Positions 3,060 through 31,788 of a stretch of 64,000 nt of DNA are shown in pieces. The translations under genes and the position numbers were made by a program. Below the pieces are notes generated by a model, which worked only from the letters and a program-made list of their open reading frames with translations, did not search any database and had not been told where the DNA came from. Origin of the DNA: Candidatus Nealsonbacteria bacterium (GTDB taxonomy: Bacteria; Patescibacteriota; Minisyncoccia; Minisyncoccales; JANBVM01); the NCBI GenBank assembly GCA_047456315.1, contig CP179889.1, forward strand, positions 56,966 to 120,965, given 5' to 3'. Position 1 is the first letter of the stretch, and each line of letters opens with the position of its first letter.

Positions 3060-5456
3060 TTAAATTACAATGTTTATTAATTTTCCTGGAACAAAAATTA
3101 TCTTTTTAATGCTTTTACTTAATATTCTTTTTTTAACTTTTTCACGATTTAGTGTCAAATCGCGCGCTTCATCCTCAGAAATATCAGCCTCTACCTCAAT
3201 TTTATCCCGAACCCTGCCATTAATCTGAATTATTAAGGTAATTGTTTTTTCTTCTGCTAACTTTTTGTCATATTTTGGCCAGGATTGATCATGAACTGAA
3301 TCTTTGTTGCCAATTTTTCTCCAAAGCTCTTCAGCAATATGGGGTGCAAATGGAGCCAGTAGCAACAGCATCCTTTCAATCACATCCTTTCCAACGCTGT
3401 CCTTGTTTTTAAAACTAAAATTAATAAATTCCATAAAAGCAGCCACTGCTGTATTAAACTTCATTTTTTCCATGTCAGTTTCTACTTTCCTATTAAGTTT
3501 GTGAATTTCTTTTATTGCACTATCAGAATTTTTTTTATTCTCGAAACAATCTAAAGTTAATTGCCAGACTCTGTTTAGAAATCTGTTAACACCTTTTACT
3601 CCTTTACTGTTCCAAGAAATTGCCTGCTCAAAAGGACCCATAAACATTTCATAAACTCTTAAAGTATCAGCTCCATGTTCTTTAACAATATTATCAGGGT
3701 TAATAACATTACCAAATGATTTTGACATTTTCCTGTTATCTTCAGCTAAAACAATTCCATGGGAAGTTCTTTTCACATATGGTTCTGGATGGGAAACAAC
3801 TTTAATATCATAAAGAAACTTGTATATAAACCTAGAGTATAAAAGATGTAAAGTAGTATGCTCCATCCCGCCATTATACCAGTCAACTGGCATCCAATAA
3901 TTTAATTTTTTCTTGTCAGCTATTTGTTTGTCATTTTTAGAATCAACATATCTTAAAAAATACCAGTTAGAACCAGCCCAGTTAGGCATTGTGTCAGTTT
4001 CTCTTTTTGCGCTGCTCTTGCACTTAGGACATTTAACGTTAACCCAATCACTTATTCCAGCTAAAGGAGACTCTCCAGTATCAGTTGGTTCATATTTTTT
4101 CACATAAGGAAGCTCAACTGGTAAATCTTTTTCAGAAACAGGAACAATCCCGCATCTTTCACAGTGAATAATGGGAATGGGCTCTCCCCAATAATGCTGA
4201 CGGGAAAATATCCAGTCTCTTAATTTATAGCGAATTTGTTTTTTTCCTAATTTTTTATTCTCAAACCATTTAGTTATTTTTTTAATTGCCTCTCCTGACT
4301 TCAAACCATTGAATTCTCCTGAATTAACTAAAGTTCCATATTCAACAAAAGCTTGTTTTGAAACATCTCCTCCTTTTATTACTTCTCTTATTTCTAGATT
4401 ATACTTCTTAGCAAAATCATAATCACGTTTATCATGAGCAGGAACAATCATTACAGCCCCTCCTCCATAAGTTGCAACTACATAGTCGCCAATCCAGACA
4501 GGAATCTTTTCATTATTTATTGGATTAATACAATATGAACCAGTGAATATTCCTGTTTTTTCCTTTTCGAGTTTTGTTCTTTCAAACTCTGTTTTATTCT
4601 TTGATTGTTTAATGTATTTCTCAACCGCGCTTTTATTTTCATCAGTTATTAGTTTTTCAACTAATTTATACTCAGGAGCTAAAACAACAGCTGTTACCCC
4701 AAAAATAGTATCAGCCCTGGTAGTAAAAACAGAGATAACATCGCTGGAGTTTTCAATTTTAAAATCAATGTCCACTCCATAACTTCTACCAATCCATTCA
4801 AGCTGTTGAGCTTTAATTCTTTCTAAATAATCAACTTTCTCTAAATCTTCAATTAACCTATCAGCATATTTTGTGATTTTAAGCATCCATTGTTTTAGTT
4901 TTTTTTGTGAAACTTTTGCCTTGCATCTTTCACATTTTCCATCAATAACCTCTTCATTTGCCAGGCCAATTTTACATGATGGACACCAGTTAATAGGCAT
5001 TTCATCCTGATAAGCAAGATCGTTCTCAAAAAGCTTTAAAAATATCCATTGAGTCCATTTATAATATTTAGGATCAGTTGTATTAACTTCTCTTGACCAA
5101 TCAAAAGAAAGACCTAAACTTTTAAGCTGTCTTGTATAGTTAGCAATATTCTTTTTAGTTACTTCAATTGGATGGATACCAGTCTTAATTGCATAGTTCT
5201 CAGTCGGCAGACCAAAAGCATCCCAGCCAATTGGAAACATTACATTGAATCCCTGCATTCTGTATTTTCTTGCTATTGCATCAAATGCTGAATAAGACCT
5301 ACAATGGCCAACATGAAGACCAACTCCAGATGGATATGGAAATTCAATTAAAACGTATTTTTTAGGCTTTTTTGAAAAATCCTGAGCTTTATAAAAATCA
5401 TGCTTCTCCCAGTATTTTTGCCATTTAGATTCTATCTCTTGAGATTTGTATTGCAT
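3060..5456 (-). CDS. leuS: leucyl-tRNA synthetase
   Basis: 798 aa; HIGH-type motif (HVGHCRSY) and KMSKS motif; length and architecture typical of LeuRS. Confidence 0.93.
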   Translation of the reverse strand: MQYKSQEIESKWQKYWEKHDFYKAQDFSKKPKKYVLIEFPYPSGVGLHVGHCRSYSAFDAIARKYRMQGFNVMFPIGWDAFGLPTENYAIKTGIHPIEVTKKNIANYTRQLKSLGLSFDWSREVNTTDPKYYKWTQWIFLKLFENDLAYQDEMPINWCPSCKIGLANEEVIDGKCERCKAKVSQKKLKQWMLKITKYADRLIEDLEKVDYLERIKAQQLEWIGRSYGVDIDFKIENSSDVISVFTTRADTIFGVTAVVLAPEYKLVEKLITDENKSAVEKYIKQSKNKTEFERTKLEKEKTGIFTGSYCINPINNEKIPVWIGDYVVATYGGGAVMIVPAHDKRDYDFAKKYNLEIREVIKGGDVSKQAFVEYGTLVNSGEFNGLKSGEAIKKITKWFENKKLGKKQIRYKLRDWIFSRQHYWGEPIPIIHCERCGIVPVSEKDLPVELPYVKKYEPTDTGESPLAGISDWVNVKCPKCKSSAKRETDTMPNWAGSNWYFLRYVDSKNDKQIADKKKLNYWMPVDWYNGGMEHTTLHLLYSRFIYKFLYDIKVVSHPEPYVKRTSHGIVLAEDNRKMSKSFGNVINPDNIVKEHGADTLRVYEMFMGPFEQAISWNSKGVKGVNRFLNRVWQLTLDCFENKKNSDSAIKEIHKLNRKVETDMEKMKFNTAVAAFMEFINFSFKNKDSVGKDVIERMLLLLAPFAPHIAEELWRKIGNKDSVHDQSWPKYDKKLAEEKTITLIIQINGRVRDKIEVEADISEDEARDLTLNREKVKKRILSKSIKKIIFVPGKLINIVI

Positions 5457-13630: not shown

Positions 13631-13800
13631 AAAAACCGCCTATTAAGCGATTTTATCTTAGCTCAGGCGGTAGGATTCGAACCCGCCTCGGTCGCCCTGT
13701 ATGCATAGGCGTCTCGGTCTCTCGAACAGTGCGCAAGATTGATGGAGACCCTGGACGATTTTCGAATCTTCAAGAAGGAAATTATTAGCAAGCGCCCGAA
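13631..13800 (-). ncRNA. GC-rich structured repeat element, copy A. It has a tRNA-T-arm-like core and an intrinsic-terminator-like 3' hairpin.
   Basis: Minus-strand sequence ...TTCGAGAGACCGAGACGCCTATGCATACAGGGCGACCGAGGCGGGTTCGAATCCTACCGCCTGAGC..., followed by CCGCC...GGCGG plus TTTTTT. It shares this core with 5 other loci in the window. Confidence 0.5.
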
Positions 13801-13834: not shown

Positions 13835-14413
13835 TTATTGAGAAGTCTCGATAGGAAGATTGTTTGGTGGAGAAACGATTTTCTTTCGTCTTTTAGTTCG
13901 CTCCTTAAGATACTTTTTTAAAAAGAATCCTCCCGAAAGAATCGCTAAAATTGCGAATATCCAAATTGAATTTTGGGAAATAAATCTTAAAACAGAAGCT
14001 AAAAATATTAGATTTTCTTCCTCAACATTTAATTGCACGGGGACTTTAACTCCAGGATTAACGCTAAAACTCTGACGATCTAATGGTTTAGCTAAAACCG
14101 AGAGATTAATCGCTTTTCTCCCCTCTTCTTTAGCCAAAAAAGTAATTTTAACTTCTTTATTTTCTCCTGCCTCTAAACGGAAATTGCTTGGCTCAATTTT
14201 TATCCACTCATTTAATTCATCAGGAAAAACCTGAAAAATTCCCGCTTCTTGGGAAATGTTATAAATTAAAATTTTAGCTTTTTTAGGCTGACCAACCTCT
14301 AATTCTAAGTCTAAAAATGAAGGTTTAGTTCCGATTCCAATAGCTAAAGCTGAATCAAAAGAGAAAAGGAAACAAAAAACAAAAAGTAGAATTGTTAAAA
14401 TCTTAAATTTCAT
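13835..14413 (-). CDS. hypothetical secreted/membrane-anchored protein
   Basis: 192 aa with an N-terminal signal peptide and a C-terminal TM plus basic tail. Confidence 0.5.
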   Translation of the reverse strand: MKFKILTILLFVFCFLFSFDSALAIGIGTKPSFLDLELEVGQPKKAKILIYNISQEAGIFQVFPDELNEWIKIEPSNFRLEAGENKEVKITFLAKEEGRKAINLSVLAKPLDRQSFSVNPGVKVPVQLNVEEENLIFLASVLRFISQNSIWIFAILAILSGGFFLKKYLKERTKRRKKIVSPPNNLPIETSQ

Positions 14414-16161
14414 TATTGATTAGCAATTGCCCAAAAAGTTAAATCACCCTCTTTAATTCCAAGATCTGTCCAGCCGGCAGGGATAGTTAATCCGACTAAA
14501 ACATTTTTCTCTGATCCAGTATTAATAATAGTGCTAAATTCTGGCCAATCTAATTCCTCTAAGGTAATATTTTCTCTAAAAATCTGCTCGCCACTAACAA
14601 TTCCCTCAAGATATATCCTGAGATCACCAGTATTAGTAATTACTAATAAATCACTGGCTTGAGCCCCGGGAGCTAATTGACCAAAATCAATCTGATTTTT
14701 GTCAATGATAAAAGCGATTTCTGGAACTGGTGGAGCTGGCTGGATTATCTCTACTCTCAACCCAACATTTTGACTAATTCCTTCTCCGACTAATAAACTT
14801 ACCTGATTAGTTTGGATAAAACCTGATTTTTCAGCATAAACTTGATAAATTCCTAGAGTATTAATGATTAAATCGGCTTCACCATCATTATCAGTGATAA
14901 AAGTCAGACTTCCAACATAAATTATAGCTTCAGCTAAGGGTTTCCATTCAGAATCTTCAAAATATTCCACTTTGGCTTCGAGATTATTTCCTGGATTAAC
15001 CTTTTGACCAGCCAGAGTTAATCTGATAGGTAACCAACCCCATTCACCAAAATACCACAAGACCTCATCGCCCGGTTCTAATGTATAGTCAGCTGCCCCA
15101 ATCATTGGTATTTCATAGTTAACAAAATAAAGCCAGCCAATTAAATCATGAGCTTCTTCTTCATTAATCTTTTTTAAATAAGGTCCCCAACTGGTTTCCT
15201 CAATCAAATAAGTATAGCTACAGACTTGGGCTCCATTTTCAATAATATCTAAGGCAGTAGTTGCTTTTACTTTTGCGTCACAAATATTGTTATTCTCTCC
15301 TTCAATTCTTAAATGATGTAACCTATTTATTGGATAATAATTTTCAGTTAGGGCAATTACTGCATAGGCAGTTAAAATTGGATAATCCTTATCTTCGGAG
15401 GCAATCCATTTAAAAGAGCCATCTGCTTTTTGTAATGATTTTAAGTGATCAACTGGATTTTGATCATTTTTCTGCCAATCGAAAGGATCCTGACCTAATT
15501 TATAAATTGCTGAGATGACCCAACCATCAGAGCCAGAATCGGATGGACCTGCAGGAAGATAAGGAAAACCACCATCATCATTCTGGCTTGATTTTAAATA
15601 ATCAATAGCTTTAATGATTGCTGGATCCTGAGAAGAAATCCCAGCTTCTAACAAAGCCATAATTGCAGCTGCTGTATCATTGGTGTCACTCTGGCCTAAA
15701 AGAGCATAACTCCAGCCACCATTTTCATTTTGATTATTTAAAATGAAATTTTTAGAATCTTGAATGATTTGATCGGAAATACTTTCACCAGCCGAAACTA
15801 AAGCCAAAATTCCCCAGAAATCATCATTTAATAAATCAGGAGAACCAATTTGATTATTTTGATAAAAGCTTTTCAGTTGAGTAACAAAATCAATATTGCT
15901 AAAAGTTTTTGGATTTTCGCCTGCAGCAATTAAGGCCAAAATAGTTTTTTCATAATCGGTGGCTAAGTTGCCTGTAACTTCTTTTAAATGGTTTAGATCT
16001 AAATCTATTTCGCCAGCCGCTACCAAAGCCATTGTTATCCAGGGATCGGGAGTCTGGGCTTTAAGGTAATTGATGGTAGAATTATCTATTTCCGCCAGAC
16101 CTGGTAAAACTAACGAAAAAATTAAGGTTCCTGCCAGAAAAAGTAAGATTGTTTTTTTCAT
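14413..16161 (-). CDS. secreted protein with terpenoid-cyclase/prenyltransferase-like (alpha/alpha toroid) repeats
   Basis: Signal peptide; repeated segments such as NENGGWSYAL, DDGGFPYLP and SDTNDTAAAIMALLEAG resemble PF00432/PF13243-type repeats; the C-terminus is beta-rich. Confidence 0.5.
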   Translation of the reverse strand: MKKTILLFLAGTLIFSLVLPGLAEIDNSTINYLKAQTPDPWITMALVAAGEIDLDLNHLKEVTGNLATDYEKTILALIAAGENPKTFSNIDFVTQLKSFYQNNQIGSPDLLNDDFWGILALVSAGESISDQIIQDSKNFILNNQNENGGWSYALLGQSDTNDTAAAIMALLEAGISSQDPAIIKAIDYLKSSQNDDGGFPYLPAGPSDSGSDGWVISAIYKLGQDPFDWQKNDQNPVDHLKSLQKADGSFKWIASEDKDYPILTAYAVIALTENYYPINRLHHLRIEGENNNICDAKVKATTALDIIENGAQVCSYTYLIEETSWGPYLKKINEEEAHDLIGWLYFVNYEIPMIGAADYTLEPGDEVLWYFGEWGWLPIRLTLAGQKVNPGNNLEAKVEYFEDSEWKPLAEAIIYVGSLTFITDNDGEADLIINTLGIYQVYAEKSGFIQTNQVSLLVGEGISQNVGLRVEIIQPAPPVPEIAFIIDKNQIDFGQLAPGAQASDLLVITNTGDLRIYLEGIVSGEQIFRENITLEELDWPEFSTIINTGSEKNVLVGLTIPAGWTDLGIKEGDLTFWAIANQ

Positions 16162-21159: not shown

Positions 21160-24100
21160 TTAGCTTCCGACCTTTTTAATAAATAACTGCAGTTTCTGGC
21201 CGTTAATAATAACCTGTTTTCCTTTTTTCAATTCTTTAACTAAATCCAGGTCCTTTGCCTTTGTTTCTTTGTTAATCATCTTTTCTTTTCTTAGCAACAG
21301 CTCGCTCATATCATGCTCTGCCTTGAATTGAATTATAATAACATCTTTTGGAGTTAGTTTCCTGCTCTTTCTCATTTCTTGAATGTTTCTAATAACCTCT
21401 CTTGTTATTCCCTGCTCTTGCAGTGATTTAGTGATTTCTGTGTTTAGTTTTATCTGTTCTCCAAAACCAATGTCTAAAACATTGACTTCCTTTTTAATTA
21501 AATCTAAAAGCTCTTTTTCATTTTTTAATTCTTTATCTTTGATTGTTAATTCTTGCAGAGCCTGTCTTACTTTTATTTGAGCTTTTGCTCTTTCAGCTAA
21601 ACCTAGTTTTACTATTTCTCTTGCTTTTTCCATCTTTTTATTCAATTCCTCATCAATAGATTTTTTAGTTGCTTTAGGCCAATCCTCTAAATGAATTGAT
21701 TCTTTTGTTTCTAATCCTGATTTTTTAAAATCCTGATATATATATTCAGTAAAAAAAGGAATAAAGGGAGCTGATAATTTTATTGTTTGAAAGATTACAA
21801 AACTCAGAGTTCCAGCAGCATCTCTTAATTCTTCTTCATTCTCAGGCTGCTGAAATCTTTTCCTTGACCTTCTGATGTACCACAAAGAAAGTTCATTCAT
21901 AACAAACTTTTCAATACTTCTGGCTGCACCGGTTATATCATAACTTTCCAGCAATTTAGTGGTTTTTACAACCAACTCATTAAGTTTAGAAATAATCCAT
22001 TTGTCTAAAATATGCTTGGAGCAGGGATTTTCAAAACTCAAGAACTCATCATCAGCATAAGTTTTTAAAAATATATAAGAATTCCATAAAGGAAGAATGA
22101 ATTTTCTTAAAACATTTTCAGGATCTTTCTCCGAGAATAGCTTAGAATCACCAGGATGACTAGAAGTGTAAAATGACCACCTTAAGGCATCAGTTGAGTA
22201 TTTTTCAATAATATACCAGGGATCAATTATATTTCCTTTTGATTTTGACATTTTTTCACCTTTTTCATCCAAAATATGGCCCAAAGAAACAACGTTTTTA
22301 TATGCTGGCCCTTTTCCAAGCAAAGTAGAAATAGCAAGCAAAGTATAAAACCAGCCCCTAGTCTGGTCTATTGCCTCGCAGATATAATCAGCAGGAAACT
22401 GCTTGTTTTCGTCAATCAGTTTTCTATTCTCAAAAGGATAATGATATTGAGCAAAAGGCATTGCTCCTGAATCAAACCAGCAGTCAATTACTTCTTCAAC
22501 TCTTTCCATTAAAGCTTGGCAGCTTGGACACTGAAACTTTACATTATCAATAAAAGGCCTGTGCAAATCCAACTCTAAGTTTTTATTAAAAGGCAATATC
22601 CTAAACTCTATGTTTTCTAATTTGCCTGTTTTTGTTCTATTTCCTTTTTCCCGCCACTTTAAAATCTTTTCAAGCGACCATCCTTCTAAGGTTTTCTTTA
22701 AAATAGCTAAAGGAAGTCCATGAGAAATAATTAAAATATTCTTTCCTTTGTATTTCTCATCAGTTTCCTTTAAGAAACTGTACATTCTTTTTTTAATATC
22801 TCTTACACTTTCACCTTTTGGAGTTTTTGTTTCTGTTAAACTTCCTTGTTTTTTAAAATAATCCCAAACTAATTTTGGCGCCTTGCCGTTAAAAATACCA
22901 ACATTAAACTCCCTTATTTTTTTGCTGAATTTAACTGGAGCTTTGGTTATTTCAGCTATAATCTCAGCAGTTTGTTTTGTTCTTAATAAGTCAGAAGAGA
23001 AAATAAGGTCCAAGCCCTGTTTTTCCAATTTATCTCCTACTTTTTTTGATTCTTCTTTCCCTTTATCAGTTAAAGGGCATTGAAATTTCTCAGGCCAGCA
23101 CGATGTAACTCCTTTCACTTGTTTTACACTTTCACCATGACGAACTGTAAAATAATTATTATTAGTGAACCTCTGCTTCAACAAATCATCAACACCGCCA
23201 ATTACCACCTGGTTTTTACAATGAGCGCACTGCCAGATAGGAAGAGGGGTTCCCCAATATCTTTCTCTTGAAATTGCCCAGTCTTTAACCTCTTTTAACC
23301 ATCCGCCAAATCTTCCTTTTTTAAGATAAGATGGATACCAATTTATCTTTAAATTATTAGCAATTAAGTCCTTTTTAACTTTTGTCATTTCTATAAACCA
23401 GCTCTTTTTTGCGTAATAAAGAAGCGGTGTCTTGCATCTCCAGCAAAATGGATAATCATGTTCATAAAGTTCTTGCTTGAACAACAACCCTCTTTCTTCT
23501 AAATCTTCAATTATCAATGGGTCAGCTTCTTTGAAATACATTCTTGCCCATTTTTCAACATTTAATCTAAATCTCCCCTCGTCATCAATATTCAATAAAA
23601 TTGGCAGTTTATTCTTTTTACCAGCTTCCATATCATCTATGCCATAAGCAGGAGCGATATGAACAAGGCCTGTTCCTTCATCTAAAGAAACAAAATCTCC
23701 CCCAATAACCTTGTAAGCATTTCTTGAAACTTCATCTTCCGCTGGATACAGAACTTCGTACCTTAAATTAAACAAATCCTTTCCTTTGAATTCCTGGATA
23801 ATTTCACCTTCAAGCCCTAATTCCTTAATTCTTTCTTTTGCTAATATTAAATACTCCTCATTAATTTTGATTTTTGCATAAATAAATTTAGGATTTACTG
23901 CCACAGCTACATTTCCAGGCAATGTCCAGGGAGTAGTTGTCCATACTAAAAAAGAAGTATTCTTAAAATTAGGGCTGATAATCTTAAGCTTGATAAAAAC
24001 TGATGGTTCTTTTATCTTTTTATACCCTTGAGCCACTTCATGAGACGAAAGAGGAGTCCCGCATCTGGGACAATAGGGAACAACCTTAAAGTCCTGAATT

Positions 24101-24597
24101 AAGAGCTTTTTCTCCCAGATTTGTTTTAATATCCACCATAATGACTCAACATATTCAGCATTATAGGTAATGTAAGGATTATTAATATCAACCCAGTAAC
24201 CGATTTTCTCTGTTAAATCTACCCAGTCCTTTGTAAAATTCCAAACAGATGTTTTACATTTTTTATTGAACTTAGAAATACCATATTTTTCAATGTCTTT
24301 TTTTGATTTAAGCCCTAGTTTTTTTTCAATCTGAAGTTCAACAGGAAGACCATGGGTGTCCCAGCCACCTTTTCTTAAAACCCTGAAACCCTTCATTGTC
24401 TTGTATCTGCAGATTATGTCTTTAAAAATTCTGGCTAAAACATGATGAAGTCCTGGAGGCGCATTAGCAGTAGGAGGGCCTTCATAAAACACAAAATCAC
24501 GAGCTTTAGCTCGTTGTTTTATGCTTTTTTCAAAGATTTTATTATCTTTCCAGAATTTTAAAATTTTCTTCTCTGTTTTAGTAAAATTGAAATTCAT
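21160..24597 (-). CDS. ileS: isoleucyl-tRNA synthetase (type 2) with an inserted histidine-phosphatase (PGAM-like) domain
   Basis: 1145 aa. It has a HIGH-region, the RERYWGTPLPIW and DLHRPFID motifs, WFDSGAMPFAQ and KMSKSKGN. About 200 aa between residues ~478-675 carry RHGES...SSDLLRTKQTAEII...ISHG. Confidence 0.93.
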   Translation of the reverse strand: MNFNFTKTEKKILKFWKDNKIFEKSIKQRAKARDFVFYEGPPTANAPPGLHHVLARIFKDIICRYKTMKGFRVLRKGGWDTHGLPVELQIEKKLGLKSKKDIEKYGISKFNKKCKTSVWNFTKDWVDLTEKIGYWVDINNPYITYNAEYVESLWWILKQIWEKKLLIQDFKVVPYCPRCGTPLSSHEVAQGYKKIKEPSVFIKLKIISPNFKNTSFLVWTTTPWTLPGNVAVAVNPKFIYAKIKINEEYLILAKERIKELGLEGEIIQEFKGKDLFNLRYEVLYPAEDEVSRNAYKVIGGDFVSLDEGTGLVHIAPAYGIDDMEAGKKNKLPILLNIDDEGRFRLNVEKWARMYFKEADPLIIEDLEERGLLFKQELYEHDYPFCWRCKTPLLYYAKKSWFIEMTKVKKDLIANNLKINWYPSYLKKGRFGGWLKEVKDWAISRERYWGTPLPIWQCAHCKNQVVIGGVDDLLKQRFTNNNYFTVRHGESVKQVKGVTSCWPEKFQCPLTDKGKEESKKVGDKLEKQGLDLIFSSDLLRTKQTAEIIAEITKAPVKFSKKIREFNVGIFNGKAPKLVWDYFKKQGSLTETKTPKGESVRDIKKRMYSFLKETDEKYKGKNILIISHGLPLAILKKTLEGWSLEKILKWREKGNRTKTGKLENIEFRILPFNKNLELDLHRPFIDNVKFQCPSCQALMERVEEVIDCWFDSGAMPFAQYHYPFENRKLIDENKQFPADYICEAIDQTRGWFYTLLAISTLLGKGPAYKNVVSLGHILDEKGEKMSKSKGNIIDPWYIIEKYSTDALRWSFYTSSHPGDSKLFSEKDPENVLRKFILPLWNSYIFLKTYADDEFLSFENPCSKHILDKWIISKLNELVVKTTKLLESYDITGAARSIEKFVMNELSLWYIRRSRKRFQQPENEEELRDAAGTLSFVIFQTIKLSAPFIPFFTEYIYQDFKKSGLETKESIHLEDWPKATKKSIDEELNKKMEKAREIVKLGLAERAKAQIKVRQALQELTIKDKELKNEKELLDLIKKEVNVLDIGFGEQIKLNTEITKSLQEQGITREVIRNIQEMRKSRKLTPKDVIIIQFKAEHDMSELLLRKEKMINKETKAKDLDLVKELKKGKQVIINGQKLQLFIKKVGS

Positions 24598-24647
24598 ATA
24601 TATCTTAAAATATCATTTTAAGAGTAAAAATGCAATCAAACTTAATA

Positions 24648-24845
24648 GTTCGAGTCCTACCGCCGGAGCCAAGCTGTGAGGCTTTCGAGAGACCGATTTG
24701 CCTCATATTTTTGGAAAAAGTTCGAAAAAAAATCGCCCTACCCCGACTGGAATCGAACTTTGTTCGAGACAGGGAGTAGCGGTTTGAATCCTAGCCCCGC
24801 AGAATTTGAAGCCCGAGATTGTTCCTCGGGTTTGACTTTTTAAAA
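24648..24845 (+). ncRNA. GC-rich structured repeat element, copy D
   Basis: GTTCGAGTCCTACCGCCGGAGC...GGCTTTCGAGAGACCGA... followed by a second tRNA-like segment (AGCGGTTTGAATCCTAGCCCCGCAG) and a CCCGAG/CTCGGG hairpin plus T-run. Confidence 0.45.
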
Positions 24846-24914
24846 AATGCTTTGTAAGATTTATTTGATAAACAAGCAAAAAGATCTTTACCAATAAAAA
24901 AGAGGTAGAAAAAA

Positions 24915-25508
24915 ATGGATTTGGTTAAAAGTGAAGTTAAGAAAGAATTCCATAGAGGTGCGTGGGAATCTCCCGGTTTACGTGATGATCAAATTAGAAA
25001 CTACTTTGAGGAATTAGCTAAAAAGAAGGAAATAGAAATTTTCTCTGTTTCTATTGATGATAGGAAAACCTTAAAAAATGATAAGGACAAAAGAATAGTT
25101 GAAGTCAAAAAAGGGGCAACCTTGCACCCCAAAGAAAAATTAGAGAGTTATTTGAATTACATAATTAAAACTCGGCAGGGGGTAATGTATACTTTAGAGA
25201 TTAAAGGTGGTTATTTCTGTATCGGTGCAGAAGGACCTGGCAGCGCAAGCTGTAGTTGTTGTCTGGATAGGCTTAACAGAAAGCTTGATTTGAGGAAAGT
25301 AAAAGAAACAAGCGGTGGGTTATCTCTTCCCAGTTTGTCTTTCCCTAAGGATACAATAGTTGCTAAGTTTTATTTTTCTTACCATGAATATGATCCTTAT
25401 CATTCCAAGCAATGGACATCGTCTGTTTATTTTTACGGGAAAAGAAGTGTTAGAAACAAGCTATTCAAGAATGTATATGAATTCTTTAAAGAAAATTTAA
25501 AAATCTAA
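24915..25508 (+). CDS. hypothetical protein with a Cys cluster (CIGAEGPGSASCSCC)
   Basis: 197-aa ORF. Confidence 0.45.
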   Translation: MDLVKSEVKKEFHRGAWESPGLRDDQIRNYFEELAKKKEIEIFSVSIDDRKTLKNDKDKRIVEVKKGATLHPKEKLESYLNYIIKTRQGVMYTLEIKGGYFCIGAEGPGSASCSCCLDRLNRKLDLRKVKETSGGLSLPSLSFPKDTIVAKFYFSYHEYDPYHSKQWTSSVYFYGKRSVRNKLFKNVYEFFKENLKI

Positions 25509-25599
25509 TTTTTTTAATATCGTTGAGCCAAGAACTTTATTCTTGGTTTTTTTATTCAGACATTTGCTAAAATATACTCCAAATCCCCAAGACTTTCCC

Positions 25600-25708
25600 T
25601 AATTTCTGCCCAATCTACGGTTCTAAACGCGTCCAATAGGGGGAGCAGGCTAGTGCTCGGTTCGAGCGACCGAGAGGCATAAAAATCGCCATTAGGGCGG
25701 TTTTTTTT
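25600..25708 (+). ncRNA. GC-rich structured repeat element, copy E (3' module)
   Basis: GGAGCAGGCTAGTGCTCGGTTCGAGCGACCGAGAGGCATAAAAATCGCCATTAGGGCGGTTTTTTTT; near-identical to the 3' part of copy C. Confidence 0.45.
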
Positions 25709-25746
25709 GTTACTTTTTTCTCTCTCAATCGTAATATTAAATAGAA
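25709..25746 (+). promoter_or_regulatory. conserved upstream motif (copy 1) preceding the chagasin-like gene
   Basis: GTTACTTTTTTCTCTCTCAATCGTAATATTAAATAGAA lies ~40 nt upstream of the ATG at 25783; a near-identical copy is at 26431-26468. Confidence 0.5.
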
Positions 25747-25782
25747 AGGTCATTAAGACATATAATTAATTATTAAAAGAAT

Positions 25783-26301
25783 ATGTTAAAGCTAATTACT
25801 ACCGTTTTTATTTCATTGCTTATTATTGTCGGTATAAGCTACGGAGCAAACCATTATATCGTTGCTCCAGCAACAGAAAACACAAAAGACGCTGGCATTC
25901 AAATAATAGAAAAGGAGGTTGGCGAAGATTTTGAAATAGTCTTGGAGGCCAATCCCACTACCGGCTATCAGTGGACAGTGGAGTTTGATGAAGAATTTAT
26001 TGAATTGGTTGACAGAAACTATATTGTCCAGGAGCCAACCTTTTCAAAAGATGCAATGGTTGAATCTGTTATGGCTTCCAGAGATGGAGAAATTCCGACC
26101 GAGGATCTTCCTGATGGAGCAAGAGAGATTATTGACAGCGAGATTGAAGAGGGAACAATAGGGTTAGTCGGAGCAGGCGGCCAGGAATTCTTCAAATTCC
26201 TTGCCCTGAAAAAAGGAGATGTAGAAATAAGGTTTTCTTACGAGAGATCTTGGGAGGAAGAACCTATTAAAATCCTGACCTACAAAGTGATAATCAAGTA
26301 G
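25783..26301 (+). CDS. chagasin-family (MEROPS I42) cysteine-protease inhibitor, secreted
   Basis: Signal/TM N-terminus, the NPTTGYQW signature motif, a GAGG loop; size of 172 aa; followed by an AGCAGGG/CCCTGCT terminator at 26310-26340. Confidence 0.75.
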   Translation: MLKLITTVFISLLIIVGISYGANHYIVAPATENTKDAGIQIIEKEVGEDFEIVLEANPTTGYQWTVEFDEEFIELVDRNYIVQEPTFSKDAMVESVMASRDGEIPTEDLPDGAREIIDSEIEEGTIGLVGAGGQEFFKFLALKKGDVEIRFSYERSWEEEPIKILTYKVIIK

Positions 26302-26362
26302 GATTACAAAAAGCAGGGATAAGAGCCCTGCTTTTTGCTCCAAGATAGTGTAGGATACAGTA

Positions 26363-26465
26363 ATGGAGCAAGAAATTGTTGAGCAATGCAAAAAAGGAAA
26401 TTTGGAAAAGTTTGAAAAACTCTACAACAGTGTTACCTTTTTCTCTTTCAATCGTTATATTAAGT
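26363..26465 (+). pseudogene. possible remnant of an ECF/sigma-70 family sigma factor N-terminus
   Basis: 34-aa ORF beginning MEQEIVEQCKKGNLEKFEKLYNS resembles the start of sigma-70 region 2. It terminates inside the conserved upstream motif of the next gene. Confidence 0.25.
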
Positions 26466-26468
26466 AGA
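26431..26468 (+). promoter_or_regulatory. conserved upstream motif (copy 2) preceding the Cys-rich protein gene
   Basis: GTTACCTTTTTCTCTTTCAATCGTTATATTAAGTAGAG lies ~40 nt upstream of the ATG at 26510. Confidence 0.5.
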
Positions 26469-26509
26469 GGAATCGAAAAATATATAGAAACTTAATTTTT
26501 AAAAATAAT

Positions 26510-27550
26510 ATGTCTAAAATAATCATTGCAATCATTTTTATAATAATTGGAATTGTAGCAGGATTAGGTTATTGGTTTTATCAATCAATGTCCGAAGAGC
26601 TAACTGAAATAGAACAAGCCTGTGTACACTCTGGAGGAACAATCTCCACATCATTGTGTTGTAAAGCAACTGGTGATTTTCCTAACCTGTGCCTTGTTGG
26701 TCCTTGTGGTTGTTCACCAGATAATAGTCATCAGGTAAAGATTTGCGATTGCGGACCTGATAAATGTTTTGATGGAAGTGAGTGCGTATCTTTAGATGAA
26801 GTTTCAGTTCTTCTTGAAAGCATTGAACAAGAAACTGGGATAGATTTTTCAGAAGCACAACCAGTTGATTTTAAATGGGTAGTTAAAGTAACTCCAAAAG
26901 TAGAAGAGGAAGCTGTGTCTGGGAAAGGATTTGAAGCTGAACGTATATCAAGCGAGCAGTACGATAGTGTTGAGTCTTTTCTCATAGATAGAGGTTTTAA
27001 AAAGGACCTTTATAATATAGCTGATGGCACTTTTGTTGGATTGAAAGGATATAAAAAAGACCAGATTATTTGTACTGTTTCTGGAGGGTCTACTCCGCAA
27101 GAACCTGATATCAATGATGTAACAGTGAAATGCGGGAAGTTAGAGATAATTATTGATCTGGAAGAACTCTCTCAGTGTGCAAAAGATGGAGAAACATTCT
27201 CAACAATCGATGATGGATACCCAGTCCGTTGCTGTGAAGGTCTAAAAGAATGGTCACCTATTCCAGATACACGTTTTTCAATCGCAGATGTATGTTATGA
27301 AGTTGGGTTACCATTGGAATCTAACATAGGACTTTGTATAAAGTGTGGGGACGGGGTTTGTGAAAACCATCCGCAATATGATGAAAATCCATGCAATTGT
27401 CCTGAAGATTGCGCAGGAAAGGACAAATCGCATTTTTCCAGTATAGAAGAATTTTGCCAGAGCAATGACTGGAAAATGTCTCTTTCCAAAGCCTGCGAAG
27501 AACAAGAACCTATTAAGGGTTCTCCAATATGTGAATTATGCGCTTTTTAA
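26510..27550 (+). CDS. Cys-rich membrane-anchored secreted protein with an internal duplication
   Basis: 346 aa with an N-terminal TM. There are two Cys-rich modules, each beginning CxxSGG(T/S) (CVHSGGT... and CTVSGGS...), and a CGDGVCENHPQYDENPCNCPEDC block. Confidence 0.6.
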   Translation: MSKIIIAIIFIIIGIVAGLGYWFYQSMSEELTEIEQACVHSGGTISTSLCCKATGDFPNLCLVGPCGCSPDNSHQVKICDCGPDKCFDGSECVSLDEVSVLLESIEQETGIDFSEAQPVDFKWVVKVTPKVEEEAVSGKGFEAERISSEQYDSVESFLIDRGFKKDLYNIADGTFVGLKGYKKDQIICTVSGGSTPQEPDINDVTVKCGKLEIIIDLEELSQCAKDGETFSTIDDGYPVRCCEGLKEWSPIPDTRFSIADVCYEVGLPLESNIGLCIKCGDGVCENHPQYDENPCNCPEDCAGKDKSHFSSIEEFCQSNDWKMSLSKACEEQEPIKGSPICELCAF

Positions 27551-27559
27551 AGAAATAGT

Positions 27560-27680
27560 GAGTAACGAGGCGTGGAATACCTGCTCTAGAGATTGAACTA
27601 TTTCCGAGACCGAGCCGTCCATCCTGCTAGGGCGACTGAGAGGGGTTCGAGTCCTACCGCCGGAGCAGGCGGTTTTTAAA
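27560..27680 (+). ncRNA. GC-rich structured repeat element, copy F, ending in an intrinsic terminator
   Basis: TTTCCGAGACCGAGCCGTCCATCCTGCTAGGGCGACTGAGAGGGGTTCGAGTCCTACCGCCGGAGCAGGCGGTTTTT. CCTGCT pairs with AGCAGG, and CCGCC...GGCGG plus T-run forms the terminator. Confidence 0.5.
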
Positions 27681-27698
27681 TTCTCCTAATTTTAATCT

Positions 27699-29285
27699 CT
27701 ACATTTTTTCAGGAGCTGAAATTCCCATCAAGTCAAAAGTTTCTTTAAGTGTAATTTTAACAGCTGATATCAAAGATATCCTAGCCTGCTGTAGTTTTTT
27801 ATCATCAGTTAAGACCTTGCAGTTTTGATAGAACTGATGAAAAGCAGTTGCCAGATCAAAAGCATACTGAGGCAATCTCTGAACTTGATAATCTTTGCTT
27901 ATTTGCTCAATAATTCCCGGGAATCTAATAAGTTGCTTTATTAATAAGGCCTCGGAAGCGTGATTTAATAAAGAAAAATCAGGCTCTGTTTTTTTTGCTT
28001 TAATTTTTTTTAAAATACTGCAAATTCTTGCATAAGCATACTGAACGTAGTAAACCGGGTTTTTCTGTGATTGTTCCCTTGCTAAATCCATATCAAAATT
28101 CAAGTGGGTGCTAGCTGATCTTTGAAGGAAAAAGAATCTAACAGCATCTTTACCAACCATATCAATCAAATCATCCATTGTTACATAATGACCTGCTCTT
28201 TTGGACATTCTTAATTTTTCCCCTTTTTCAAAAAGGGTAATAAACTGCAGAATTATGATTTCAAGCTTGTTTTTGTAACCAAGCACCTCAACAATTGCTT
28301 TAAGTCCAGCTATATCCCCATAATGATCAGCTCCCCAAACATTAATCACCTTGTCAAACTTCTTGTCTTTAAACTTATACTCATGAAGAGCCATGTCTCC
28401 TGCTAAATAGGTTTTCCATTTATCTGATTTTACTATCACCCTGTCTCTGTCATCGCCGTATTGCTTTGATTTGAACCATAGGGCTCCATCTTTTTCATAC
28501 AGAAAGCACTTTTCCTTTAATTTATCTATTACCTTGTCAACCCGTCCTGACTTATGGAAACTTGTTTCTGAAATCCATTCATCATACTTTATTCCCATAT
28601 TGTCAGTGGTTTTTTTAATCATTTCTTTAATAATAATCTTGGCTGCTTTTTCACCAGCCTTGTAAACATCCTTTTCTTTTATTCTTTTACTCAAATCATC
28701 AATATAGTCTCCCTTGTATTTGGCATCTTTATCTTTTAAAACAGAATGCCCTAAAGTCATAATCTGCATTCCATAATCATTTATGTAATAAGCTTTTTCT
28801 GTTTCATAGCCAGCTTTTTTCAAAACATTTGCCAGCACATCACCAAATGCCCCGCCCCTGGCATTGCCAACTGTTAGAGGTCCTGTTGGATTTGCAGAAA
28901 TAAATTCAACCTGAACTTTTTGATTTCTGCCAATATCCAGCTGACCGAATTTTTCTTTTTTCTTAAGGATTTTTTTAACTCGCTCCTCTAAATATTTACT
29001 TGAAACAAAAAAATTAATGAATCCTGGTTTTAATATCTTAATCCTTCTAAATAAATCTGGTATTTTAATTTTGAAATTTTCAGTTAACAATTCCGCTGTT
29101 TCTATTGGGTTTTTCTTTGTTTTTTTTGCAATTATCATTGCAATATTAGTAGAATAATCACCATGAATTTCTTGTTCAGGACACTCAACTTTAATCTCGC
29201 TAATATCAAAAACAGGAATCTTCTTTTGTTTCTGAAGCTTAGTTATTGATTCTTTTATTAATTTTTTAATATCTTCTTTAATCAT
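27699..29285 (-). CDS. argS: arginyl-tRNA synthetase
   Basis: SANPTGPLTVGNARGGAFGD (the ArgRS HIGH-equivalent region) and a C-terminal DALR anticodon-binding domain. Confidence 0.92.
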   Translation of the reverse strand: MIKEDIKKLIKESITKLQKQKKIPVFDISEIKVECPEQEIHGDYSTNIAMIIAKKTKKNPIETAELLTENFKIKIPDLFRRIKILKPGFINFFVSSKYLEERVKKILKKKEKFGQLDIGRNQKVQVEFISANPTGPLTVGNARGGAFGDVLANVLKKAGYETEKAYYINDYGMQIMTLGHSVLKDKDAKYKGDYIDDLSKRIKEKDVYKAGEKAAKIIIKEMIKKTTDNMGIKYDEWISETSFHKSGRVDKVIDKLKEKCFLYEKDGALWFKSKQYGDDRDRVIVKSDKWKTYLAGDMALHEYKFKDKKFDKVINVWGADHYGDIAGLKAIVEVLGYKNKLEIIILQFITLFEKGEKLRMSKRAGHYVTMDDLIDMVGKDAVRFFFLQRSASTHLNFDMDLAREQSQKNPVYYVQYAYARICSILKKIKAKKTEPDFSLLNHASEALLIKQLIRFPGIIEQISKDYQVQRLPQYAFDLATAFHQFYQNCKVLTDDKKLQQARISLISAVKITLKETFDLMGISAPEKM

Positions 29286-30945: not shown

Positions 30946-31285
30946 GGGGACGTCAAGATTCGACAGGAATTTGAATAAAAAATGCAAGTCGAGCTTCGAA
31001 TCTCGTAAATCTTCGAAACAACATTAAGTGCCAATAACTTATTTGCACCCGCATTAGCTACTGCTTAATGCCGTCTGCCTTACTGATTCTCGATAGGTAA
31101 AAGCGGGCGTGATATTATCGGGATAGATAGTTTTTTAGGAACTGGGAAAACTATCAAAAATCAACAGAACAAAAATCAGAAAAATTTTGTCCAGTTTAAA
31201 TTTTCTGAGTTCAACTAACTGGGCTAAACTTGTAGAGTTATTTTAGAATAATTCCTGGACAAGGGGGCAGATCCCTTCGTCTCCA
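30946..31285 (+). ncRNA. ssrA: tmRNA (transfer-messenger RNA, ssrA)
   Basis: 5' GGGGACGUCAAGAUUCGACAGG (compare consensus GGGGCUGAUUCUGGAUUCGACGGG). The 3' end AAGGG-GGCAGAU-CCCUU-CGUCUCC-A gives an acceptor stem GGGGACG/CGUCUCC with a G3-U70 pair and discriminator A. It sits directly downstream of smpB. Candidate tag frame: GCC AAT AAC TTA TTT GCA CCC GCA TTA GCT ACT GCT TAA. Confidence 0.8.
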
Positions 31286-31287
31286 CT

Positions 31288-31788
31288 ATGTTTAAAATGG
31301 TAAAAACAAGTTATGGGAAAATAAAAAACCTTTCTAGCCCAGAGGCGGCTTATACGGCTGGCTTAATTGATGGAGACGGTACAATTGCTTTGAGTCGCTC
31401 TCAAAGCAAGAATCGAAATAAAAAAGAGTATCGCAGATTAGAAGTTAAAATAAGCAATACAGATTTTAATCTACTTAGTTATATTAAAAATATAGTCGGT
31501 GCCGGACAGATATCAAAGAAAAGGCCGCGCAATGAAAGACAGTCAATATCTTACGCATACAGAATCTGTAATCGACAAGCATTCAATCTTTTAACTCAGA
31601 TTTCATCCTGTCTTAAAACCTATAAGCAAAAACGTGCGAGGCTAGTTTTAGAAAATTATATAGAATTAACTCCCCGCAACGGAAAGTATTCCCAGGAAAT
31701 CCTTGCCAGAAAAAAACGATTCGTGAAAGCTTTTTTCGCTATACCATCGACAATGAAAATAAAGCCGAAAATCGCAAAATATTATTAG
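31288..31788 (+). CDS. LAGLIDADG-family homing endonuclease (single-motif, I-CreI-like size)
   Basis: 166 aa with AAYTAGLIDGDGTIAL (the LAGLIDADG motif). It starts 3 nt after the tmRNA 3' end. Confidence 0.75.
   Translation: MFKMVKTSYGKIKNLSSPEAAYTAGLIDGDGTIALSRSQSKNRNKKEYRRLEVKISNTDFNLLSYIKNIVGAGQISKKRPRNERQSISYAYRICNRQAFNLLTQISSCLKTYKQKRARLVLENYIELTPRNGKYSQEILARKKRFVKAFFAIPSTMKIKPKIAKYY

Follow-up and report, generated by a model that had tools for sequence, protein, structure and literature searches.

A predicted pair of ECF sigma factor promoters at a chagasin-type inhibitor locus of Candidatus Nealsonbacteria, the second apparently assembled by a rearrangement that removed the sigma factor gene

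The window analysed in this study is a 64-kb stretch of the genome of a Candidatus Nealsonbacteria member. Two of its genes, encoding a chagasin-type protease inhibitor and a Cys-rich protein, are each preceded by a copy of the same short motif, and what remains of a sigma factor gene is found between them. The features of this locus are the following, with coordinates referring to the window:

24647-24669, + strand: direct copy of a tRNA-Asn 3′-end repeat
25642-25706, + strand: left border module, made up of GGAGC, a AGGCTAGTGCTCGG...CCGAG hairpin, and a terminator (25681-25705); start of the identity with locus L087
25708-25747, + strand: P_ECF1, predicted ECF-type promoter (-35 TGTTAC, 25708-25713; T-tract, 25714-25719; 16-nt spacer; -10 CGTA, 25730-25733), with orthologous sites in relatives
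25783-26301, + strand: gene of a chagasin-family (I42) cysteine-protease inhibitor of 172 amino acids
26308-26336, no strand assigned: terminator-like hairpin after the I42 gene and before the sigma remnant (stem GCAGGG/CCCTGC with flanking A-run and T-run, as read from the letters)
26351-26356, + strand: -10-like hexamer TAGGAT, 6 nt before the ATG of the sigma remnant, likewise read by eye
26363-26467, + strand: remnant of an ECF sigma factor gene, with codons 1-23 at 26363-26431 and the frame continuing through P_ECF2 to a TAG at 26465-26467
26431-26470, + strand: P_ECF2, second predicted ECF-type promoter (-35 TGTTAC, 26431-26436; -10 CGTT, 26453-26456), identical in L087
26510-27550, + strand: gene of a Cys-rich membrane-anchored protein of 346 amino acids, with 214 homologues
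27644-27673, + strand: right border, where a tRNA-Asn 3′-end copy (GGTTCGAGTCCTACCGCCGGAGC, 27644-27666) and a terminator hairpin (27656-27673) overlap

The first gene product can be assigned to the peptidase inhibitor family I42, since Pfam PF09394 (Inhibitor_I42) is matched with 76.3 bits against a cut-off of 27.2 (E = 2.4e-21) and the loop motifs NPTTGYQW, GAGG, and RSW are all present. In these loops (NPTTG, GxGG, RxW) it resembles the chagasin/ICP inhibitors (MEROPS I42), from which it differs in being membrane-anchored and in possessing a variable insert between the first two motifs. An N-terminal hydrophobic segment, which would be an anchor or a signal, is seen in both this protein and the Cys-rich protein upon reading of their sequences. 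The initial annotation, which had named a chagasin-type inhibitor gene downstream of the first motif copy and had described both products as signal-anchored, is supported on these points. The same amino acid sequence as that of the inhibitor (100% identity) is found in XOB41191.1, which belongs to a Ca. Nealsonbacteria genome of 647,540 bp; this genome encodes a second I42 paralogue, which belongs to the same 90% cluster as the I42 protein of L087. Searches by exact protein sequence led to no contig, neither with the window inhibitor nor with its paralogue P0126. In comparison to orthologues of 193 amino acids, the window protein has two in-frame deletions (9 and 11 amino acids), and the centre of its gene (about 25990-26170) is highly divergent from that of L087, including indels, while the flanks are about 95% identical. 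This central divergence may be due to diversifying selection or mosaic recombination.

For the Cys-rich protein, searches of Pfam and NCBIfam gave no significant match, DUF2180 appearing only under its cut-off, and no match was obtained among the PDB sequences. The named sources of its 214 homologues are Ca. Nealsonbacteria, Minisyncoccales, and Patescibacteria. Some of the homologues carry I42, DUF333, or GerMN domains; the fusions to I42 and DUF333 suggest that the parts of the operon described below are tied functionally. Homologues elsewhere are preceded by promoters of the TGnTAGAAT type, without the ECF motif.

Several other features of the window were recorded. Just upstream of the I42 gene and its promoter, between two tRNA-like repeats, lies an ORF of 197 amino acids (24915-25508, +) without a match in Pfam or NCBIfam, and further upstream, on the other strand, an isoleucyl-tRNA synthetase of 1145 amino acids (21160-24597, -) contains an inserted histidine-phosphatase domain, as judged from an RHGE motif in the window translation and from Pfam His_Phos_1 in the counterpart of L087, which is also 1145 amino acids long. 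A cobalamin riboswitch (RF00174; 16247-16377, -; 40.6 bits versus a gathering score of 31.5, E = 4e-8), missed by the default gathering-threshold scan of the whole window, is located upstream of a 582-amino acid ORF (14413-16161) with a DUF4430 domain. The tmRNA gene (30946-31288, +; 139 bits) is directly followed by an ORF for a LAGLIDADG homing endonuclease of 166 amino acids (31288-31788, +).

A degenerate 37-mer representing the motif has two exact matches in the window, both on the + strand (25709-25745 and 26432-26468); none would be expected in the shuffled window (100 shuffles), and the third-best site on either strand has 14 mismatches. The copies are identical at 33 of 37 positions, and 37 nt separate the first copy from the ATG at 25783 and 41 nt the second from the ATG at 26510. 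The initial annotation had described a motif of about 38 nt, occurring twice with four mismatches some 40 nt upstream of an ATG; the number of copies, the mismatches, and the distances are borne out, while in each copy one of the two end coordinates must be shifted by a single base. When extended by one base at the 5′ end, both copies read TGTTAC-Y-TTTT-N11-CGTW, that is, TGTTAC-N16-CGTW. A check for -35/-10 spacing of the ECF type had been proposed in the same annotation, and precisely such an arrangement of TGTTAC, T-tract, 16-nt spacer, and CGTW is found. An exact scan with the degenerate 37-mer gave no match in a genome contig collection that contains neither the window genome nor CP179890.1.

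The sigma factor remnant in front of the second copy, already suspected as a decayed gene start, is clearly recognizable. It encodes MEQEIVEQCKKGNLEKFEKLYNS, corresponding to residues 1-23 of an intact ECF sigma factor with 83% identity to that of locus L001 (tblastn), and is detected by a profile of 73 related sigma factors with E = 4.5e-5 (hmmsearch). The P_ECF2 motif starts at the base where the homology to the sigma factor stops. No functional sigma factor is encoded by this 23-residue remnant, and no other sigma factor was found in the 64-kb window by hmmsearch with the sigma profile.

L001, the locus located through a close relative of the Cys-rich gene of the window, encodes a complete sigma factor of 180 amino acids. 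It matches Pfam Sigma70_r2, r4_2, and Sigma70_ECF as well as TIGR02937 (100 bits versus a cut-off of 42.9) and thus possesses regions 2 and 4 without region 3, which makes it an ECF sigma factor. Among solved structures it is closest to the ECF sigma factor 6dxo (E = 7e-26) and to SigW from the SigW-RsiW complex (5wuq; E = 6e-16); its top match in NCBIfam is the BldN family, with 129 bits against a cut-off of 206, and the protein stays under the cut-off of every NCBIfam equivalog model. A literature search for a BldN promoter consensus found none. The stop codon of the L001 sigma gene overlaps the start of a gene for a membrane protein of 204 amino acids that has a DUF333 domain and a Cys cluster on its extracellular side. 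Because of this overlap the membrane protein is taken as the putative anti-sigma factor, although, different from SigW-RsiW-type pairs, it displays no recognised anti-sigma domain but only DUF333 and the Cys cluster.

The operon is intact in L001, L004, and the complete Ca. Nealsonbacteria genomes CP179892.1, CP179891.1, and CP061210.1 (loci L086, L088, and L090). In L001, L086, L088, and L090 the order is promoter, I42 gene, terminator-like hairpin, ECF sigma gene, DUF333 membrane protein gene, and a next gene, which in L001 is the Cys-rich gene. A site orthologous to P_ECF1 is located upstream of the I42 gene in all five of these loci and in L087; the promoters of the intact operons score 33-36 bits each in the weight matrix described below. 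The terminator-like hairpin following the I42 gene is kept in L001 and L087. Its loop reads ATAAGAG in the window (26319-26325) and CTCTTAT in L087 (8590-8600), which are exact reverse complements, so that one genome has the hairpin in inverted orientation relative to the other.

With the L001 sigma factor as query, a sample of 80 metagenomic loci was assembled, encoding sigma factor relatives with 31-90% identity; according to the names of the protein matches, the clade includes Nealsonbacteria, Buchananbacteria, Jacksonbacteria, and Woesebacteria. Of the 75 loci in which 100 nt or more precede the sigma gene, 61 (~80%) have GTTAC-N15-17-CGT on the coding strand within 400 nt upstream of the sigma start. 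The sites lie mostly at -50 to -75 from the sigma start, with N16 in nearly all of them. Loci without a sigma-proximal site mostly encode distant sigma factors (≤40% identity); L001 and L004 have no site within these 400 nt because in both the I42 gene intervenes after the promoter. Exact GTTAC-N16-CGT occurs 2.3 times per kb in the sigma upstream stretches, compared to 0.044 per kb on the rest of the + (sigma) strand and 0.0026 per kb on the - strand, corresponding to an enrichment of ~50-fold and ~900-fold, respectively. The GTTAC/CGT pattern as found in the window is present in 64 related loci, and the core of the spacer is variable.

A weight matrix was built from 60 distinct sigma-proximal sites of the related loci. 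The invariance of GTTAC and CGT is partly imposed by the way in which these sites were collected. Beyond the search pattern, conservation extends to a T before GTTAC, to YTTTT after it, and to W after CGT, whereas the 11 central bases of the spacer are free; at each of the positions +2 to +5 counted from AC, 46-53 of the 60 sites have a T, which is not imposed by the search pattern. A purine-rich AGTAGAAG is found at about the expected transcription start. The resulting consensus, T-GTTAC-Y-TTTT-N11-CGT-W, can be read as -35 element, -35-proximal T-tract, 16-nt spacer, and -10 element; in P_ECF1, transcription would start near 25739-25744. In the window the matrix assigns 36.9 bits to P_ECF1 and 40.6 bits to P_ECF2, with all other sites below 12 bits; each of 20 shuffled windows gave 0-1 matches of at least 12 bits. 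Across 85 loci the matrix gave 63 matches scoring 18 bits or more, all of them on the sigma strand and none on the other. As a negative control served the 80 unrelated I42 loci (696 kb) from an I42-based contig scan in which L092 was the only close relative; apart from L092, they yielded one weak match. Promoters of the same type also precede the gene of a combined SLH and I42 protein in L057, a distant member of the clade, and an anti-sigma-like gene in L050.

The location upstream of the sigma gene and on its strand in 61 of 75 loci, together with the varying spacer, argues for the motif being the autoregulatory promoter of the clade. Both window copies exhibit what is typical of ECF promoters, namely a bipartite -35/-10 arrangement at a fixed spacing of 16-17 nt and a -35-proximal T-tract. 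The third characteristic, a position upstream of the cognate sigma gene, is seen in the relatives, while the window keeps only the sigma remnant. It is therefore quite probable, as far as can be judged from sequence comparison, that each of the copies represents an ECF sigma promoter. A housekeeping sigma-70 promoter (TTGACA-N17-TATAAT or TGnTATAAT) was considered and rejected, since neither site was called in a consensus scan of 24500-27800 and such a model leaves the conserved G of TGTTAC and the CGT unexplained; promoters of the housekeeping type have the form TGGTAGAAT or TGATAGGAT in these genomes. A shared leader motif, GAAAGGTC, was likewise discarded, since its 5 occurrences in the window do not exceed the 7 expected and it is confined to homologous promoter modules.

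An operator for a repressor or activator, or a structured leader RNA, might be suspected from the length of 37 nt and the good conservation between the copies, yet the bipartite conservation with its free spacer does not fit either of them, and both must be regarded as highly improbable. An operator is disfavoured by the lack of dyad symmetry on inspection and by the strand specificity (63 matches versus 0), an RNA element by the fact that both regions fold worse than their shuffles (z = +1.28 and +1.44) and find no Rfam match better than E = 0.2. From the original wording, "promoter or operator", the first term is retained on the strength of the ECF architecture and the sigma-proximal, strand-bound placement, and the second is abandoned.

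Comparison to L001 allows the rearrangement between the sigma remnant and the Cys-rich gene to be mapped. Homology extends to position 26431, that is, sigma codon 23, with window 26291-26431 aligning with L001 4710-4850, and resumes at 26456. In place of L001 4851-5952 (1102 bp), comprising sigma codons 24-180, the DUF333 gene, and its 3′ spacer, the window contains the 24 nt GTTACCTTTTTCTCTTTCAATCGT (26432-26455), which are without counterpart in L001. At the left junction, sigma stub and promoter share at most one base (T 26431). The right junction is located inside the -10/leader region, where TATATT-AAGTAGAGGAATC of the window aligns with the housekeeping-type TAGAAT-AAGAGTGAAAGGTC of L001; P_ECF2 would, therefore, consist of a -35/spacer/CGT segment joined to an already existing -10/leader. 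In the closest intact relatives, no ECF promoter is found in front of the downstream gene. From this alignment, P_ECF2 appears to have been created by the very rearrangement that removed the sigma and the putative anti-sigma genes.

Locus L026 offers a further case. An M23-like peptidase gene and the sigma gene are each preceded there by a full promoter copy, with the same spacer in both, and a third copy is cut off after the T-tract; at each of the three places (3570-3605, 4440-4465, and 4893-4930) the T-run of a terminator is combined with TGTTACCTTTTTGCT. Promoter copying thus recurs in the sigma clade.

The same truncated cassette, with a 23-codon stub fused to an identical P_ECF2, is present in a second Ca. 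Nealsonbacteria genome (locus L087 of CP179890.1; 675,639 bp), there at another chromosomal site, beside glyS and a peptidase S66 gene. Over 25642-27666 the cassettes of the two genomes share about 95% identity, apart from the central part of the I42 gene. The identity begins at GGAGC/AGGCTAGTG and ends right after GGTTCGAGTCCTACCGCCGGAGC, following GAGC. The left border module has a fold energy of -36 kcal/mol (z = -2.1), and the T-run of its terminator, which was called by the scan, abuts P_ECF1. The repeats at 24647-24669 and 27644-27666 flank a 3-kb stretch including the 197-amino acid ORF and the cassette with the I42 and Cys-rich genes. A real tRNA-Asn(GTT) with the same 3′ end is located upstream of the intact operon in L086. 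In the window there are six tRNA-Asn 3′-end repeats, and ARAGORN found no tRNA gene.

The repeats look like attachment sites of a cassette or island system. The cassette shares with tRNA-bounded genomic islands that it is bounded by copies of a tRNA-Asn 3′ end and that its shared borders follow right after GGAGC; it is unlike them in that no integrase was found among the 20 neighbouring window ORFs scanned, that six repeats occur within 64 kb, and that the window has no tRNA gene. It might be imagined that a self-contained cassette, consisting of border hairpin, P_ECF1, I42 gene, sigma stub, P_ECF2, Cys-rich gene, and tRNA-Asn 3′-end copy, moves or is copied between tRNA-Asn 3′-end repeats of Nealsonbacteria genomes after having shed its own sigma and anti-sigma genes, while keeping two ECF promoters that another ECF sigma factor serves in trans. 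This extended reading is considered unlikely; if it were true, the cassette would constitute a portable "regulon module", and to this module a rapid diversification of the inhibitor in its central segment would be coupled.

With regard to the repeats themselves (GGTTCGARTCCTACCGCCGGAGC), the copies in the window are at 13683 (-), 16547 (-), 16925 (-), 24647 (+), 24781 (+, degenerate), and 27644 (+); further copies were seen in L087 (6715 and 9910) and in L091 (3247, 9864, and 11225). They often precede a AGGCTWGTGCTCGG...CCGAG hairpin with terminator, and they border gene blocks that differ between sister genomes, such as the interval from glyS to the M16 peptidase gene and the I42 cassette. 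At about 2910-3005 in L088 and 3175-3270 in L091, a tRNA-Asn-like T-arm and acceptor end occur, with a 5′ part that ARAGORN does not call; these sequences might represent a tRNA that is disrupted or contains an intron, or else some other tRNA-like RNA.

Considering the exact coincidence of the second motif copy with the rearrangement junction, and an apparently mobile, repeat-bounded cassette around it, the motif could also be a scar left by recombination or duplication, for instance a border of the cassette or an attachment site, without any role in transcription. There is very little probability in this explanation, given that the cassette borders are GGAGC and the tRNA-Asn 3′-end copies, both different from the motif, and that in ~60 other loci the motif occurs once, at a fixed distance before the sigma gene and with a variable spacer, which is unlike a scar.

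The reading of both copies as clade-specific ECF promoters, derived from an ancestral operon in which the replacement of 1.1 kb by 24 nt produced the second promoter, is considered very probable as a whole. Each copy would be read by RNA polymerase with an ECF (group IV) sigma factor of a clade widespread in Patescibacteria. In the ancestral operon, a single ECF promoter would drive the genes of the I42 inhibitor, the sigma factor, and the membrane protein with DUF333 domain and Cys cluster. The membrane protein would hold the sigma factor back as long as its DUF333/Cys-cluster domain is not acted upon by an extracellular cue; this cue might be proteolysis, since the first gene of the operon encodes a cysteine-protease inhibitor. 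The freed sigma factor would then raise transcription of the inhibitor gene and, by read-through of the hairpin, also its own, read-through being necessary for autoregulation in the intact operons because the terminator-like hairpin separates the I42 and sigma genes. Finally, 24 nt with GTTAC, spacer, and CGT would have joined the -10/leader of the Cys-rich gene to give the second ECF promoter. A sigma factor supplied in trans could still co-induce both secreted proteins, but with the genes of the cognate sigma factor and anti-sigma factor deleted, co-regulation of the two genes in the window genome is not assured.

Whether P_ECF1 and P_ECF2 are still in use in the window genome appears about evenly balanced. 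The cluster of intact-type sigma factors has members from genomes of 653,831, 694,748, and 661,413 bp, while neither in this cluster nor in the ten largest related clusters is there a member from the two genomes with the truncated cassette (647,540 and 675,639 bp); as the cognate sigma factor was not found, both sites may be unused. They would then be fossil promoters, unread since the loss of the sigma and anti-sigma genes, and the downstream genes would be silent or transcribed by the housekeeping machinery from TAGGAT or from TAATAT/TATATT within the motif. For this somewhat doubtful alternative speak, besides the lack of a sigma gene in the window, the conservation of the TAGGAT/TAGAAT hexamer before the sigma start (TAGGAT in the window, TAGAAT in intact L001) and the TGnTAGAAT-type promoters of Cys-rich homologues elsewhere. 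The hexamer, which was not called in the consensus promoter scan, would be a possible housekeeping promoter reading through into the Cys-rich gene. In favour of continued use, no core base has been lost in any of the four promoter copies that the two truncated cassettes contain, and P_ECF2 is identical in both, even though this test has little power because the divergence is only about 5%. Moreover, two tiny genomes have retained the truncated cassette, each at a site of its own, and the genome of the window encodes a second I42 paralogue. The sister genome CP179887.1 (L091 20700-20770) encodes another ECF sigma factor, 38% identical to the L001 type and preceded by GCAAC-CTTTT-N11-CGTTATA, in which the -10 and the T-tract match the motif and the -35 differs. 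ECF sigma factors of Bacillus subtilis share promoters (PMC5758882), and with such a related promoter at hand, cross-recognition of the window sites by a factor of this kind is possible.

As ECF promoters, the two sites are of a well-known kind. The consensus for B. subtilis SigW, SigX, SigM, and SigV is tGAAACnTTTt - spacer - CGTA/CGTC, with a functional T-tract (PMC5758882). Common to both are a -35 element ending in AC, a free base, a tract of four to five T, a gap of 16 nt between AC and CGT, and CGT(A/T), as well as a site before the sigma factor's own gene and a membrane anti-sigma gene after it. Different is the -35 element, which is TGTTAC in the present, predicted consensus and TGAAAC or TGTAAC there; the systems described here also belong to Patescibacteria with genomes of 0.65 Mb, and the window has no sigma gene. 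Literature searches for ECF sigma factors in Patescibacteria or Parcubacteria and for a link between I42/chagasin and ECF sigma factors gave nothing, and we could not find a description of a CPR-specific consensus. Unusual about the present locus are the loss of the cognate sigma factor, the new assembly of a second promoter, and the apparent mobility of the cassette between tRNA-like repeats.

To our knowledge, almost nothing is known about transcription control in Patescibacteria (CPR). For one clade of their ECF sigma factors, a promoter consensus derived from locus comparison is now given, and with it a small set of targets is defined, comprising the sigma operon, chagasin-type inhibitors, and a few secreted proteins. 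In the window, a regulator has been lost by natural deletion while its promoters were kept, one of them even being newly assembled. That a cysteine-protease inhibitor is linked to a sigma factor of envelope signalling may point to a defence by protease sensing in an epibiotic bacterium.
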